64,000 nucleotides of DNA, taken from Escherichia phage vB_Ec-G1. The position numbers and the translations under genes are program-made. Each line of letters starts with the position of its first letter. Position 1 is the stretch's first letter. The stretch lies in sequence record PQ433349.1. The stretch is one strand, 5' to 3'. Below are positions 51,708 through 57,556 of the stretch, one piece after another. The notes under the pieces are model-generated. The model did no database searches. It saw only the letters and a list, made by a program, of their open reading frames with translations, and was not told the origin of the DNA.

Positions 51708-52046
51708 ATGTTTAGTAAAGAAATGAGAGAGGTGATCGCTACTCTGGTAGTTGATCATGGTGTTGAAGTTGAGCGTCACGTTTGGAAAGACGAGCCTCCT
51801 TTCTTTGATTTGGCATCACGGGCTAAAAGTCACATGTATCTCCTTGAAGATGATAAGGATTTTATTCTGCGTATGCGTTATGATCGAGAGTTTAGAATTC
51901 CTCTTGACACAGATCCTGATGATGTAGTATTGTGGTTGGCAGAGCATTTCGCATTTAACGCTCTACATGGAAGAAGTTTTGGTAATGAACGTTGGGATAC
52001 CATTTGTCGTAAACATAATATTGAACCAGAATACGGGAGTATGTAG
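51708..52046 (+). CDS. hypothetical protein
   Basis: Internal Met of track ORF 51690..52046. Confidence 0.45.
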   Translation: MFSKEMREVIATLVVDHGVEVERHVWKDEPPFFDLASRAKSHMYLLEDDKDFILRMRYDREFRIPLDTDPDDVVLWLAEHFAFNALHGRSFGNERWDTICRKHNIEPEYGSM

Positions 52047-52297
52047 TGTTAAGTATCAAACCTAAAATGATTACTGAAGATCAAAAAGATTACATTTATA
52101 AATGTGGTCGGGTGTGGAAAGAATACACTAAAGGTAATGAAGTTATTGTAGTTACGGAACATGCTATTTCTTTATCAGATCTTTTTGGTGATTATTTGCA
52201 AGTCATTAAAATTGGTATTGACAGAGGTTTGGTGCAGGTGTTAACATTATCCCAAGTTGAAGCAGAACACTTAGACAAAATCATTGTCGAGTTCTAA
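52046..52297 (+). CDS. hypothetical protein
   Basis: Track ORF 83 aa. Confidence 0.45.
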   Translation: MLSIKPKMITEDQKDYIYKCGRVWKEYTKGNEVIVVTEHAISLSDLFGDYLQVIKIGIDRGLVQVLTLSQVEAEHLDKIIVEF

Positions 52298-52660: not shown

Positions 52661-53017
52661 ATGAAAAAATTAATCTTAGCCACATTGCTGGCTACCGTAA
52701 GCTTCACCACTTACGCTCAAAAATTTGTAGCAGTTAAAACGGATATTGGTAAAGATGTTGTGATCACAGGCAACAAGTTTTACTATACACCTGGGAATGG
52801 TGTTCTAGAAGAGTGCAAAGATGTTGAGGCATATACAGGAAAAGAAGATAACACGGAACGTCCTTTTTATTCGATTATAGCTACTTGCAAAAATGAAATA
52901 GTAGCTATTAAACAATACAAAGATGCCCCTGGAGGAGAGTACTTATTAATCAAGAATATTAAGAGTGAAAAAACTGCAAAGTTTACAGTAATTATTTTAA
53001 AAGGAGAAACGTTCTAA
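52661..53017 (+). CDS. secreted protein with signal peptide
   Basis: MKKLILATLLATVSFTTYA signal peptide; GGAGGG RBS. Confidence 0.5.
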   Translation: MKKLILATLLATVSFTTYAQKFVAVKTDIGKDVVITGNKFYYTPGNGVLEECKDVEAYTGKEDNTERPFYSIIATCKNEIVAIKQYKDAPGGEYLLIKNIKSEKTAKFTVIILKGETF

Positions 53018-54156
53018 TGAAATACACTATTTTTGGAGATGTAGCTGTTGTAAATAAGGAATATGGCGTTGAAGCTAATAAACTTCCTGCTGGAGTTTGG
53101 GTTGTCAACTGCGATCCGCACGGTAACTACTCTTTAGTGCGTGGCGAAAGTTTCTCTCTTCCGAACACTCTTTATGGGGAAACTAAAGACCGCGCCGCAC
53201 ATGTTATTAAAACATTTGCTCGTCGTAGTAAAGAAGGTAAAAATACTGGGGTGTTACTGACAGGGACAAAGGGCAGTGGTAAGACGATGTTAGCTAAACT
53301 GATTAGCATGTCCCTAATGTCCACAGAAGGTTTAGGTATTCCAACCATTTTGGTGACACAGCCTTACACAGATGCTGGATTCTTAGAATTTATGAGTAAA
53401 ATTACAGATCGTGCTGTTGTTTTATTTGACGAGTTTGATAAAGTGTACGCTAAGAAAGAAGATCAGGAAGCACTGTTGACCTTGTTGGATGGAACAGGAA
53501 GTGGAAATAAACTTTACATCCTCACTAAAAATAGTGGCTATATCTCGGAATATTTTGTAAACCGTCCTAGTCGTATCTACTACAGTTTCAATTACGATAA
53601 ACTGTCTAGTGAAACTATGTTAGATTACTTGGATAAGAACTTGGTAAATAAAAAGCACGTAGATAACTTCCAACGTTTATGGGATGTTAGCACAGAGTTG
53701 TCTTTCGATGTTATTCAAGGCATTGTAGAAGAATTGAATTTCTATCCAAAAATGACTTTTAAAGAATGTCTTGAAATGATGGGTATTTCTTTAGGGAACG
53801 ATGCTAAATGGAATGTGGCTTCTATCGTAGCTAATGGCAAAACCTTGAAGGTGAATTGGATCAATAACTGGCACGACTTCACCCCTACTAAGTTTTTGTC
53901 GGGTGCTTGTTCCCTGAACATCTATCTACAAAGTTTGAAAGATGATGAAGTGGAAGCAATGGAAACCAACAGTTATGTTATCCTGGATGAAGATGGTGAT
54001 CCACATATTGATCTATGTGCAACGGCTGATGGTCTAACTTGTGATCTGATTGAAGGTGGTAAGATTCTGGTTATGAGCACTACACCAGGAAACACTCTGC
54101 GAGTGGTGCTGGAGCCTGTAACACAACGTTCCACTACTTTGGGTAGCGTATTCTAA
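53017..54156 (+). CDS. AAA+ ATPase
   Basis: Walker A GTKGSGKT, Walker B VVLFDEFD. Confidence 0.6.
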   Translation: MKYTIFGDVAVVNKEYGVEANKLPAGVWVVNCDPHGNYSLVRGESFSLPNTLYGETKDRAAHVIKTFARRSKEGKNTGVLLTGTKGSGKTMLAKLISMSLMSTEGLGIPTILVTQPYTDAGFLEFMSKITDRAVVLFDEFDKVYAKKEDQEALLTLLDGTGSGNKLYILTKNSGYISEYFVNRPSRIYYSFNYDKLSSETMLDYLDKNLVNKKHVDNFQRLWDVSTELSFDVIQGIVEELNFYPKMTFKECLEMMGISLGNDAKWNVASIVANGKTLKVNWINNWHDFTPTKFLSGACSLNIYLQSLKDDEVEAMETNSYVILDEDGDPHIDLCATADGLTCDLIEGGKILVMSTTPGNTLRVVLEPVTQRSTTLGSVF

Positions 54157-54172
54157 TAAGGCTCCCTTATTA

Positions 54173-54197
54173 AACCCGCTTCGGCGGGTTTTGTTAT
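54173..54197 (+). terminator. intrinsic terminator
   Basis: aacccgcttcggcgggtt hairpin followed by ttgtt. Confidence 0.7.
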
Positions 54198-54224
54198 ATT
54201 GATTTCAGTTTAATAGGAAGAGAA

Positions 54225-55226
54225 TTGTTAGATATGCCAGTAAAGAAGAGTATTGAAACATATATGGAAGAATGTAAGCCGATAGCTGAGGCTAAAGGGA
54301 TTACCATTCTCGGCACGTATGGAGAAGATAAAGGTGTGCATACGAAGATGATCAATCGTTGTGAACATGGTCATGAATGGAACACTACAACCTTTAATAA
54401 ATTTAAGTCTGGTCGTGGTTGCCCTGTTTGTAGGTATGAGAGAGCAGGACAAGCTAAAACTATTCCAGATGATCAGCACATACAAGATTTTATGAATACA
54501 GGCAAGTTTAAACCTGGGACTATCTTCACTAATACAGGAAAACGAGCTAAAGGAGGGCGCAATATTTTATGGTGTGTAGAGTGTCCTGTTTGTAGTGTTG
54601 ATGAATATGTTCAAGCGGGTGTCTGCAATGGTAAATTTTACTCTACAGGGAGTAGCCTTAAAAAAGGGCAAACCCCTTGCCGTTGTGCAACTAACTATCA
54701 CCACACAGAAGAACAGATCACCTACAGAACAAAGAAGGAAGTAGAGAGTAAAGGATACATTTGGATAGGATGGATCGGGAAACCTTTTGCACATGGTAAG
54801 TTTAAATATGGATGTAAGGAGCACGGAGAGCAGATAGGACGTGCAAGGGATTTATTACACCAGGGTAGTGGTTGTCCTGGTTGCGCTGGCAAGAATCAAC
54901 AACAGGCATACATTAACAACGTCTATGATGAACAAGGTGTTCTTTGTGCATTGAAGTTTGGCATTGCCAATAATAGCGATCAGCGTATTAAGATCCAGAA
55001 CTACAACAATGTGTTTACGATGAAACAAACCCAAGTGTGGCGCTTCCCTACTGTGAAGCAATGCAAAGATGCAGAGAAGCGTTGTAAGCGTGTCCTTCAC
55101 ACGGAAGCAGTGAGCAAATATTCTATGCCAGATGGCTACACAGAGACAGTGGAGTTATCTTGCATGGCATCAATACAAAATATTTATAAACTTTATGGTG
55201 GAACATTACAGGAGGAAACATGTTAG
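54225..55226 (+). CDS. zinc-ribbon-repeat protein with GIY-YIG/T5orf172-like C-terminal domain (tentative)
   Basis: Three repeats of C.HG..W ... G.GCP.C; C-terminal YINNVYDEQGVLCALKFGIANNSDQRIK; sits right after a terminator. Confidence 0.45.
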   Translation: MLDMPVKKSIETYMEECKPIAEAKGITILGTYGEDKGVHTKMINRCEHGHEWNTTTFNKFKSGRGCPVCRYERAGQAKTIPDDQHIQDFMNTGKFKPGTIFTNTGKRAKGGRNILWCVECPVCSVDEYVQAGVCNGKFYSTGSSLKKGQTPCRCATNYHHTEEQITYRTKKEVESKGYIWIGWIGKPFAHGKFKYGCKEHGEQIGRARDLLHQGSGCPGCAGKNQQQAYINNVYDEQGVLCALKFGIANNSDQRIKIQNYNNVFTMKQTQVWRFPTVKQCKDAEKRCKRVLHTEAVSKYSMPDGYTETVELSCMASIQNIYKLYGGTLQEETC

Positions 55227-55585
55227 TTGACGTTCAAATTATGCGCAACGAAAGAATGGACTTCTTTGAAGCAGTAGAGAAACATCTGATCCGATGGGAC
55301 TATGAATTTGTTCCTGCTGGATGTGGACCAGTAGAGCATTTAGCGGAAGACGACGATGTATACATGATCATTCGTCAAGTGTACCAGACAGACCAGTGTG
55401 AAGAAACTCCCGAACTGATTTTGTTTGAGTGTAAAGATCTTGCAAAATATTTTGACTATGGCGGAAAAGAGGGTCATAATCTCTCCAGATACAATAAACG
55501 TCTACTTATCTTAGACTACATGCGGAACAACAAACACAAACTCATCGACGCAGACGCAGTTTATGGCTACTGGTGGATGGACTAA
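55220..55585 (+). CDS. hypothetical protein
   Basis: Track ORF 121 aa. Confidence 0.45.
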   Translation: MLVDVQIMRNERMDFFEAVEKHLIRWDYEFVPAGCGPVEHLAEDDDVYMIIRQVYQTDQCEETPELILFECKDLAKYFDYGGKEGHNLSRYNKRLLILDYMRNNKHKLIDADAVYGYWWMD

Positions 55586-55598
55586 CAAAGGAGAAACT

Positions 55599-55778
55599 AT
55601 GGCACGTTTAGCAGATCATGAAATCTTTAAACCTATTCTGAACCACTATGATGAACTTAAAGCAGTGTTGGATTGTTATAGAGAGGATGAAGAACGTTTG
55701 GAAGTCAATCTTAAGATAGTTCTGATGAAAGCTTTTCAAGACGGGCAAGCTAAAGTTTTAGAAGGCATGAAAAAATGA
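55599..55778 (+). CDS. hypothetical small protein
   Basis: GGAG RBS before internal ATG of track ORF 55563..55778. Confidence 0.4.
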   Translation: MARLADHEIFKPILNHYDELKAVLDCYREDEERLEVNLKIVLMKAFQDGQAKVLEGMKK

Positions 55779-56317
55779 GAATAACTGATGAATATGTATT
55801 CTTCTTTTCACATAAAGATGTGTTTAGTAATTGGTATATTGCACCCTTTACAGAAACTGAACCAGGTTACAATGAGACTTTCTGTTGTGTTGAGCAATAT
55901 ATGATGTGGCGTAAGGCTTTGCTGTTCAAGGATCATGCGATTGCAGCAGCTATCCTTGATCACTCAACTATACGTGACAACGAGAGGAAACAAGCATACT
56001 ACAAACGTATGGGTCGAGCGGTATCTGGTTTTAATAATGATATGTGGGAAGAGAACCGTGAGCGTATTGTTATGCGAGGCTTATGCTTGAAATATGTACA
56101 GAATCCAGATTTGTATGCAGACTTACACCTTTACCAATACAAAACGTTTGTTGAAGCAAGCCCCTACGATAAGGTTTACGGAATTGGAATGGGGATGTAT
56201 GAACCAGGGGTGCTAAACCCTGCTACCTGGAAAGGGCAGAATCTTTTAGGCAAATATCATAATAAACTGATCGAAATACTTTTCCCAGACAAAATACCGC
56301 AAAGACGATATTTGTGA
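55775..56317 (+). CDS. NADAR-domain protein (YbiA-like ADP-ribose processing)
   Basis: FSNWY, CVEQYMMWRKALLF, RMGRAVSGFNNDMWEENRERIVMRGLCLKYVQNPDL, ASPYDKVYGIGMG align with E. coli YbiA as recalled. Confidence 0.75.
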   Translation: MRITDEYVFFFSHKDVFSNWYIAPFTETEPGYNETFCCVEQYMMWRKALLFKDHAIAAAILDHSTIRDNERKQAYYKRMGRAVSGFNNDMWEENRERIVMRGLCLKYVQNPDLYADLHLYQYKTFVEASPYDKVYGIGMGMYEPGVLNPATWKGQNLLGKYHNKLIEILFPDKIPQRRYL

Positions 56318-56372
56318 TATTTTAACTTTTTTCATTTTTAGAACAAAGGTGTCACTTTGTAGCACAGAAATA

Positions 56373-56408
56373 AGGCTCCTACAGCACCGTAGAGAGCCTG
56401 TTATTTTG
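56373..56408 (+). terminator. intrinsic terminator
   Basis: ggctcctac agcacc gtagagagcc hairpin followed by tgttattttg. Confidence 0.6.
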
Positions 56409-56561
56409 TCCTATACAAACCCTTATCTTTTTCAGTTTGCATCACTAGGATTCGATCTAAGTGGGTTCCTGAAGGTCTGCCAATAAGATTAAAGGTTATC
56501 TCAAATTCCCACTACCTATTATCTCAAAAATCCCTCAAATTATTTAAACTTTTTAAGAATT

Positions 56562-56740
56562 TACAAAAGTGAAAGTTGAAAACCAAAATTTAAAGTTTAG
56601 GAAAATTATCTTAAAATGTTAGATACAAAACAAAACTCAAAAATCAAGGAAAATTTTAAAAATTTTGCGCGCCCACAGTATTTAAAGTTTTTTTGCTTTT
56701 ACAAAAATGAAAGTACAAAAGCAAAATTTAAAGTTTACAA
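56562..56740. repeat. two about 38-bp direct repeats in an AT-rich non-coding region
   Basis: acaaaagtgaaagttgaaaaccaaaatttaaagtttag (56562-56600) vs acaaaaatgaaagtacaaaagcaaaatttaaagtttac (56701-56740), about 33/38 identical. Confidence 0.6.
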
Positions 56741-56789
56741 AAATTTATGCAGATGGGAATGAGAAGAGTTCTCATATGGAAATGCAAAT

Positions 56790-56860
56790 GATAATGATTC
56801 GCATTTAGGTTTATAAATGAGATTGATTCTTATTCAATAAGGTAAATGATAATCATTCTC
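56790..56860. promoter_or_regulatory. pair of Fur-box-like sites
   Basis: gataatgattcgcatt and aatgataatcattctc versus E. coli Fur consensus GATAATGATAATCATTATC. Confidence 0.45.
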
Positions 56861-57097
56861 ATTTAAAGAATGACGCGCAGGGGCGGTGTTTGTCTCGCGC
56901 TCCCGTGTCCCCTCGCCATGTAATAAGAATAACAGATCCAGCCAGGAAAGCAAGCGATTATTTTATCTTTACATTTCTTTACAAATATATAGCGCCCAGC
57001 CTACCGGCGATCAACCTTCCAACCAGTGCCCCCTGGTATGTTAGCCCCGCCTTTACGCCGTGGGGTGGCGCTTCCTCTTCTGTATGTAAAACAGTAT

Positions 57098-57135
57098 AAG
57101 CCCGATCCCTGGGCTTGTCAAGATTATTTTTTGTT
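57098..57135. terminator. stem-loop with T-run
   Basis: aagcccgatccctgggctt hairpin then ttattttttgtttt on plus strand; also just past stop of minus gene. Confidence 0.4.
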
Positions 57136-57390
57136 TTCTTGCCAGGATAGGACACCTAACCAAAAATATATATCGCCCCGCGCCCCTGGTGGTATCTTGC
57201 TTTCCCCGCCGCCACTGCAAGCCCATAGATAACCATTTGCGAACGTATCAAAATGATCTATCTCTTCCACCTTATGATCGCCCAGGTTGAGAACGGTTTC
57301 AACCTTTAAGCCCGTTGCGCTTGCTACCTGGTGCACCGTGCCGCCTTGCCAGCCCAATGAGTGCATAAGGTGTAATGTAGTATTTGTCAT
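57124..57390 (-). CDS. hypothetical protein in GC-rich island
   Basis: Track ORF 88 aa; codon usage unlike rest of window. Confidence 0.45.
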   Translation of the reverse strand: MTNTTLHLMHSLGWQGGTVHQVASATGLKVETVLNLGDHKVEEIDHFDTFANGYLWACSGGGESKIPPGARGDIYFWLGVLSWQENKK

Positions 57391-57499
57391 GGTATCGCCC
57401 TTTCTTTGATGTGCGCCCTGGTTGGCGCGGTAGAAAGATGATAGCCCTTTCTTTTATATATAGCAAGCAAAAAGAAAATAAAAAAGATTGAAAAAGTGA

Positions 57500-57556
57500 T
57501 TGACGTTCGCCAGGTGGCGGCATAATATTTACCACGTAGGGCGGCAATGGTGCCGC
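57500..57556 (+). promoter_or_regulatory. promoter plus leader hairpin cassette A
   Basis: TTGACG-17-TAATAT, then ccacgtagggcggcaatggtgccgc hairpin. Confidence 0.6.

Follow-up and report, generated by a model that had tools for sequence, protein, structure and literature searches.

The Vibrio cholerae satellite PLE encodes CapR, a repressor of the capsid operon of phage ICP1, and the cysteines of its CxxC...CxC finger are needed for DNA binding (PMC8096241). The origin of CapR lies in the N-terminal domains of putative homing endonucleases of ICP1, which have T5orf172 domains at their C termini (Netter et al. 2021, PMC8096241), and zinc modules are the typical DNA-binding modules of T5orf172 putative homing endonucleases (PMC8096241, PMC10448857). 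In a survey of T5orf172 homing endonuclease genes, 87% had CapR, DUF723, or DUF4379 zinc fingers, often repeated (Barth, Dunham and Seed 2023, PMC10448857). Recombination between these repeats leads to duplications and deletions, and the genes are located at boundaries of genetic exchange (PMC10448857). Nuclease activity of T5orf172 has been shown in vitro for ICP1 Odn (Gp88), where it is lost in E180A (Barth et al. 2021, PMC8263062). Here we analyze a gene of Escherichia phage vB_Ec-G1 (PQ433349.1) that combines CapR and other zinc modules with a C-terminal domain of this kind. It lies at 54225..55226 (+ strand) of a 64,000-nucleotide (nt) stretch, which we call the window. The gene probably encodes a site-specific GIY-YIG endonuclease of the T5orf172 branch and behaves as a free-standing, homing-endonuclease-like cassette that would cleave DNA and home.

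The window comes from an E. coli myovirus, a phAPEC8-like member of Phapecoctavirus (subfamily Stephanstirmvirinae). With 53000-56400 as the query, megablast returned 71 phage records at 88-99% identity, nearly all of them Escherichia phages of Phapecoctavirus.

RESULTS

Alleles are exchanged as a cassette with exact boundaries

The open reading frame (ORF) called at 54225..55226 on the + strand by a sequence-only reading of the window is sound. It encodes 333 amino acids (aa) from TTG 54225 or 330 aa from ATG 54234 and ends with TAG at 55224-55226. Residues are numbered from ATG 54234 unless stated; the TTG start adds 3 residues. Upstream is a gene for a 379-aa AAA ATPase (53017..54156; Pfam AAA), and downstream is an ORF of 121 aa.

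Compared with AV126 and phAPEC8_ev052 (ev052), the DNA is 97-99% identical up to 54159, has no identity over 54160-55209, and is again 98.6% identical from 55210. The blastn breakpoints fall at 54159, the base after the TAATAA of the ATPase gene, and at 55210, the AGGAGG of the next gene. These base-level junctions delimit an exchangeable cassette (54160..55209, + strand) that holds a terminator, a ribosome-binding site (RBS), and almost the whole coding sequence. The terminator at the same place differs by allele: AV126 and ukendt have GATGCCCCGCAAGGGGCATTT, and phiWec187 has AAAACCCGCTCCGGCGGGTTTT. Against tuntematon, phAPEC8, and ukendt, the flanks are 96-100% identical and the DNA-binding part 58-72%, with recovery inside the nuclease domain near 55100. 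The cassette DNA is 99.9% identical in 536P1 alone and at most 80% identical in the other records, with flanks up to 99.4%. At the protein level, the ATPase is at least 99% identical in 62 records and the nuclease in one, 536P1.

Synonymous divergence (dS, Nei-Gojobori) in the gene ranges from 0.7 to >3, which is saturated, as against 0.04-0.09 in the adjacent ATPase gene; the last 45 codons are flank-like, with dS of 0-0.19. The ratio of nonsynonymous to synonymous divergence (dN/dS, Nei-Gojobori) is 0.05-0.5 where dS is estimable, 0.05-0.30 against three closer alleles, and, for the nuclease domain, 0.05-0.14 against the tuntematon, phAPEC8, and ukendt alleles. The alleles fall into three length classes, 333, about 394-402, and 486 aa, which correspond to one, two, and three N-terminal copies of a zinc module (module A, described below). 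Module A is tandemly duplicated in phAPEC8 and present in three copies in AV126, and in ukendt the N terminus is replaced up to 54462. By per-domain identity, some alleles are mosaics: P0001 has identical DNA-binding modules and a nuclease domain at 85%, and P0002 shows the opposite.

We considered whether one vertically inherited gene could have diverged this far in place, rapidly, under diversifying selection and with no horizontal replacement. The gene never leaves its locus, and the most variable part among alleles is the DNA-binding modules, as such a history would have it. However, synonymous divergence is 10- to 40-fold that in the neighboring ATPase gene, and dN/dS is well under 1 in every domain. 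Furthermore, at either end of the gene about 98% identity gives way to unalignable sequence over a few bases, the terminator upstream changes along with the gene, and domains of different alleles have been recombined in the mosaics. In-situ divergence is hardly credible given these data. The alleles are old and functional, and they have moved between genomes by recombination, not by fast change in situ. The replacement of the cassette has exact boundaries; judging from the family, the nuclease would be what drives it.

In the last codons of the ATPase gene (54134-54150), four or five synonymous differences cluster beside the cassette boundary. This stretch has one form in the window and in phAPEC8 and related forms in AV126, ev052, ukendt, and 536P1. 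The cluster could be a recombination junction or the trace of a target site.

A divergent GIY-YIG/T5orf172 domain at the C terminus

The C-terminal domain, of about 105 aa (aa 222-325; 54897..55208, + strand), contains YINNVYDEQGVLCALKFGIANNSDQRIK (aa 226-253, nt 54909-54992), the segment in which the sequence-only reading had seen a resemblance to GIY-YIG/T5orf172 nucleases. That guess is supported by family-wide profile matches, fold, and structural neighbors. When 26 diverse homologous domains were scanned, T5orf172 was matched in 24 (best E = 7.6e-6) and MUG113 in 19, and no other family recurred. An AlphaFold2 model of the domain (predicted local distance difference test [pLDDT], 94) is a three-stranded sheet flanked by helices, with the β1-β2-α1-β3-α2 order of the GIY-YIG fold. 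Foldseek against predicted viral structures returned CapR-domain, "GIY-YIG domain-containing," "T5 Orf172," and "homing endonuclease" proteins. Among PHROGs, the match is to phrog_681, "endonuclease" (E = 5.8e-63); the zinc modules also match proteins of phrog_559, "HNH endonuclease." NCBIfam gave no meaningful match to the protein, and PDB sequence searches with the protein and the C-terminal profile gave nothing or chance matches to glutathione transferases at E of about 0.7.

Searching 1.84 billion representative proteins with a profile of the domain, we found 928 clusters with E ≤ 1e-3; of the 150 best hits listed, nearly all have the domain at the C terminus. CapR is present in 63 of 70 sampled representatives, and T5orf172 at E < 1e-3 in only 5 of the 70. 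Since the Pfam T5orf172 model mostly misses this CapR-linked sub-branch, surveys based on Pfam only would undercount such genes. Evidence from the family and from the fold places the domain of the window protein in this divergent, CapR-coupled sub-branch of GIY-YIG/T5orf172.

Nine residues are invariant in the 70 diverse representatives: Y226, K241, G243, R251, E281 (in α2), D300, G301, E304 (in DG-x-T-E-T), and T305. Y226 (in A-Y-I-N) and K241-F-G243-I are also invariant in 40 homologues. By position, Y226 is predicted to be the GIY tyrosine, K241-F-G243 the (Y/K)-x-G motif, R251 the catalytic-type arginine, and E281 the glutamate in the helix after β3. Lysine in place of the second tyrosine is the "KIG" form of T5orf172. 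R251 follows K241 by 10 residues, the spacing of Y17 to R27 in I-TevI.

This conservation bears on the other function that had been suggested for the gene, that of a DNA-binding regulator, taken here as one that does not cleave. The array would then act as a repressor or activator, like PLE CapR or I-TevI in its autorepression, and the C-terminal domain would be dead or would only bind DNA. CapR itself is a repressor derived from such a DNA-binding domain (PMC8096241), which lends this idea some support. However, one would not expect a dead domain to retain the Tyr/Lys-x-Gly/Arg/Glu constellation of GIY-YIG nucleases invariant in 70 representatives, purifying selection on the nuclease domain is strong (dN/dS as above), and the known CapR repressors are entirely without a nuclease domain. 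A purely regulatory role is therefore very improbable. Of the two arms of the suggestion "mobile endonuclease or DNA-binding regulator," the endonuclease is the one favored by the domains, the invariant catalytic-type residues, and the cassette replacement.

Two CHCC modules flank a CapR domain

A full-length AlphaFold model built with 40 homologues (pLDDT, 89.7; predicted template modeling score, 0.54) shows four units, and this combination of scores is a pattern typical of independently folded beads. In the model, unit 1 (aa 1-73) has a helix, three strands, and a helix, with C43/H45/C63/C66 as ligands. Unit 2 (aa 76-155) is CapR, with C117-x2-C120 ... C149-x-C151. Unit 3 (aa 157-220) has the topology of unit 1, with ligands C194/H197/C214/C217, and unit 4 (aa 222-325) is β-β-α-β-α plus a C-terminal helix.

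Unit 1 holds zinc module A (aa 4-70; 54243..54443, + strand), which is DUF4379/DUF723-like by its model topology and a weak Pfam match. DUF4379, a treble-clef family, scores E = 0.0013 and 19.3 bits on this module (threshold, 24.5), and DUF723 scores 11.5 bits in the window protein (threshold, 20.9). Precomputed matches to PF05265 are present in most of the 56 homologues found, and to PF14311 in some; in the sampled family (n = 70), DUF723 occurs in 16 and DUF4379 in 9. The motif of module A is C43-E-H-G-H-E-W ... G-R-G-C63-P-V-C66. Module A' (aa 157-220; 54702..54893, + strand) is a diverged repeat of module A, with 32% identity to it (BLASTP, E = 0.003) and a similar predicted topology; its motif, C194-K-E-H197-G ... 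G-S-G-C214-P-G-C217, has no Trp. C43, C63, and C66 of module A and C194, H197, C214, and C217 of module A' are invariant among the 40 homologues.

Between the two lies a CapR homology domain (aa 76-155; 54459..54698, + strand). Pfam PF21817 matches it with E = 1.5e-22 and 79.9 bits (cut-off, 24.2) over aa 87-155 in 333-aa numbering. All four cysteines of its finger, C117-P-V-C120 ... C149-R-C151, are invariant in the 40-homologue alignment, and the pairs are 28 residues apart, as against 24-26 in the ICP1 set (PMC8096241). CapRel/RAZR was considered as the meaning of "CapR" and rejected as unrelated. The array is thus two copies of one CHCC module flanking a CapR domain. The sequence-only reading had described three tandem modules of the form C.HG..W ... 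G.GCP.C; the first fits this description, the middle one is CapR, and the third is a diverged copy without the Trp.

The slot is occupied in the relatives examined

The gene lies between the ATPase gene and the next ORF in AV126, phAPEC8, tuntematon, ev052, 536P1, and ukendt. In the Justusliebigvirus phiWec187, it directly follows the ATPase gene; the 121-aa ORF is missing there, and the next gene is NADAR-type. The locus is occupied in the 60 records listed that span it and in all 7 loci read in detail. Databases label the gene "hypothetical protein," "endonuclease," or "putative homing endonuclease." The Phapecoctavirus orthologue does not appear by name in the supplements of PMC10448857, and our literature search found no paper on it.

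One record, vB_EcoM_EP57 (OR544956.1; 130.7 kb), is without window segments 52058-52177, 54147-55206, 55711-56082, and 56397-56519 and has the ATPase joined in frame with the 121-aa ORF. We rejected EP57 as a true nuclease-less genome because every variable segment of the region is gone too. The gap is probably an artifact of reference-guided assembly that dropped divergent regions.

Fixation at one locus across the whole subfamily would also fit a domesticated T5orf172 nuclease that is kept for the benefit of the phage. Such an enzyme might, as ICP1 Odn does, act against a satellite or other competitor (a prophage or another phage) by cutting its DNA, or it might serve in DNA degradation or processing, and the diversity of alleles would be the outcome of an arms race for targets. 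Every allele shows purifying selection and has its catalytic-type residues intact, the 3' end overlaps the RBS and start codon of the next gene, suggesting operon integration, and Odn-like anti-satellite T5orf172 nucleases have been proposed for the related coliphages Inny, Muut, and Mt1B1_P17 (Barth et al., PMC10448857). However, blastn found no DNA-level match to the cassette in 5,426 complete E. coli genomes, and the patterns we used found no confirmed relative in 185,579 species-representative genomes, so these genomes give no sign that a host or satellite carries a cognate DNA-binding domain as in the case of Odn/RepA_N. Cassette exchange at exact gene boundaries is, moreover, the product of homing-type elements. 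We regard domestication as unlikely; a domesticated role and homing are not mutually exclusive and could coexist.

Start codons, terminator, and surrounding regions

A Shine-Dalgarno-like AGGAAGAG (54215..54222, + strand, read directly from the sequence) lies 5' of both candidate starts. TTG 54225 is 6 nt downstream of its AGGA (54215-54218), and ATG 54234 is the start that matches the N termini of homologues in the alignment. Further upstream, after the ATPase gene, is the intrinsic terminator that belongs to the swapped cassette (54172..54197, + strand), identified by a consensus scan, RNA folding, and the differing terminators of relatives. Its hairpin (54172-54191) is AAACCCGC-TTCG-GCGGGTTT, with 8 bp, 5 of them G-C pairs, and is followed by a T-rich tail; as RNA, the stem is AAACCCGC-UUCG-GCGGGUUU, with a UUCG loop. 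The hairpin begins 16 nt 3' of the ATPase stop codon, and it is the sole stable structure in the RNA fold of 54157-54262; a hairpin hiding the RBS was sought in this fold of the leader, and the terminator alone was stable. Between the terminator and the gene are 28-43 nt, according to which start codon is used, in keeping with the distance of about 30 nt given in the sequence-only reading.

At the other end, the AGGAGG RBS and ATG 55220 of the 121-aa ORF (55210..55222, + strand) lie within the last codons of the nuclease gene and form the right boundary of the cassette, where homology to AV126 and ev052 resumes. A domain scan assigned the 121-aa ORF to no known family. We found no paralogue of the nuclease gene in the 64-kb window, either by tblastn or with hidden Markov models (HMMs) from two family alignments, and no tRNA anywhere in the window.

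An ORF at 55775-56317 (+ strand; 180 aa) encodes a NADAR-domain protein (PF08719, E = 3.4e-35), which relatives annotate as "COG3236 / GTP cyclohydrolase II." It is possibly an ADP-ribosyl-DNA hydrolase with a counter-defense role. In a patch at about 55711-56082, identity to tuntematon, phAPEC8, and 536P1 is only about 75%, as against 94-100% in its surroundings; by sequence comparison, this appears to be a second allele-swapping patch. Another identity trough, at 52058-52177 inside the ORF at 52046-52297, has 82-84% identity, as against 94-100% in its flanks, in three relatives. About 1.2 kb at 56320-57500 is without a long ORF and holds only short overlapping ORFs; it contains an inverted match around 56814-56867, and the tuntematon record has a repeat_region annotation in the corresponding position. 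Identity to this region is 89-91% in four records with other names, "Campylobacter phage B15," "Acinetobacter phage vB_AbaM_ABPW7," "Pseudomonas phage PsgM04F," and "Dompiswa phage TSP7_1"; either the hosts given for them are questionable or these phages derive from mixed cultures.

DISCUSSION

The cassette behavior of the locus, together with its domains, supports the view of this gene as a mobile endonuclease, with a corrected description of its modules. Several results weigh against this view. The sporadic presence and absence that is classic for homing endonuclease genes is missing among the relatives examined, including the sister genus Justusliebigvirus, and none of them offers a believable empty site, the sole gap being that of EP57. 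Within the last 20 nt of the ATPase gene, the synonymous polymorphisms do not go with allele type (536P1 has the allele of the window), and no target site was identified with them as a proxy for a target or immunity site. As to the nuclease domain, a Pfam scan of the whole protein gave no nuclease family, even at E < 10, and the C-terminal domain alone scored below threshold with T5orf172 (PF10544; E = 0.063, 14.2 bits; cut-off, 20), as it did with MUG113 (E = 0.081, 13.9 bits; threshold, 22.3). Aligning the C-terminal profile with the catalytic domain of I-TevI by hhalign, using an approximate I-TevI sequence, gave no usable alignment, and E281 may be the equivalent of I-TevI E75 and Odn E180 by topology only, with E304 as an alternative.

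The nuclease signal emerged only in separate scans of the C-terminal domain and its homologues. The HMM search that had been proposed for the gene thus gave a split outcome: the CapR zinc profile and, at the level of the family, T5orf172 were found, but the protein's own T5orf172 score stayed under the cut-off. Variation in presence and absence did not materialize; each relative examined has the gene, in synteny, an outcome that had been named beforehand as one counting against the reading. What we see is deeply diverged alleles swapped as cassettes at one site, which fits mobility by allele replacement rather than by presence and absence.

We propose the following mechanism for a mobile endonuclease of this kind. 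The N-terminal array of CHCC module, CapR domain, and CHCC module would recognize a long DNA target, and the C-terminal GIY-YIG-type domain would cut near it. The predicted catalytic set is Y226, K241, R251, and E281, plus the family-specific D300-G-x-T-E304-T motif. During mixed infections, recombination would put one allele in the place of another, and the presumed stimulus is a cut in the rival genome at the locus or close to it. Duplication, loss, and exchange of zinc modules would re-tune target specificity.

A bolder version, which we offer tentatively and as improbable on present evidence, is that the locus is a permanently occupied site of "allelic homing." Ancient alleles would compete for one slot in all Stephanstirmvirinae, each cutting the genomes that carry a rival allele, and specificity would be reprogrammed by adding, deleting, or swapping 65-aa modules (1-3 N-terminal copies). 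With a version of it in every genome, the selfish element would never disappear. If true, this would be a natural modular zinc-finger nuclease system, and it would depart from the cycle of gain, decay, and loss that is assumed for homing endonuclease genes.

The analysis provides a firm annotation for a gene that Phapecoctavirus records often label "hypothetical protein" or "endonuclease," in phages that are in use in therapy and biocontrol collections. The low coverage of the sub-branch by its profile means that CapR-linked nuclease genes are easily missed by Pfam-based surveys. The locus is also a clean natural case of nuclease alleles passing between phages of about 99% identity; the boundaries are exact to the base, and the number of zinc modules varies. 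It could become a tractable E. coli system to ask whether T5orf172 genes home and how arrays of zinc modules set specificity. Specialists familiar with Barth et al. 2023 (PMC10448857) will find nothing unexpected here; of some interest are a permanently occupied, allele-swapping locus with 1-3 zinc modules and a sub-branch that escapes the Pfam model.

Among known systems, the eukaryotic structure-specific repair nucleases SLX1 and HIGLE (PDB 7wme, 6seh, and 7cq2), GIY-YIG enzymes with a RING/PHD partner domain, are 12-14% identical to the domain described here and resemble it in fold only. I-TevI and Seg have the reverse order, with the nuclease N-terminal rather than C-terminal. The second motif of I-TevI is Y-I-G, whereas here it is K-F-G, as in T5orf172, and I-TevI/Seg-type proteins bind DNA by a helix-turn-helix or NUMOD module, unlike the several zinc modules of this protein. 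PLE CapR shares the homologous CxxC...CxC zinc-finger DNA-binding domain (PF21817), but it is a 15.5-kDa repressor that consists of the DNA-binding domain alone, whereas here a nuclease domain is attached. ICP1 Odn, like this protein, has a C-terminal T5orf172 domain fused to a swappable, sequence-specific N-terminal DNA-binding domain. In Odn this is RepA_N, copied from the satellite target; here it is a zinc-finger array, with no cognate in the genomes searched. Within the family, nuclease activity has been shown in vitro for Odn alone; for the protein of the window we infer it.

The closest counterparts are the ICP1 genes gp165, gp174, gp121, gp53, and gp130, which likewise have N-terminal CapR/DUF723/DUF4379 fingers, often repeated, and then a C-terminal T5orf172-type domain. 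By tblastn, the window protein is about 33% identical to ICP1 "putative homing endonuclease" genes over about 72-75% of its length. Repeat duplication and deletion, domain shuffling, and siting at recombination boundaries are common to the ICP1 T5orf172 genes and the gene described here. The Vibrio phage ICP1 carries several such genes, whereas the 64-kb window of this E. coli Stephanstirmvirinae phage has one copy. The gene belongs to an already described class, the CapR/zinc-finger plus T5orf172 putative homing endonucleases of ICP1. It differs from the ICP1 set in its nuclease domain, a divergent sub-branch that mostly escapes Pfam T5orf172, and in being fixed at one locus as alternative alleles rather than occurring sporadically.

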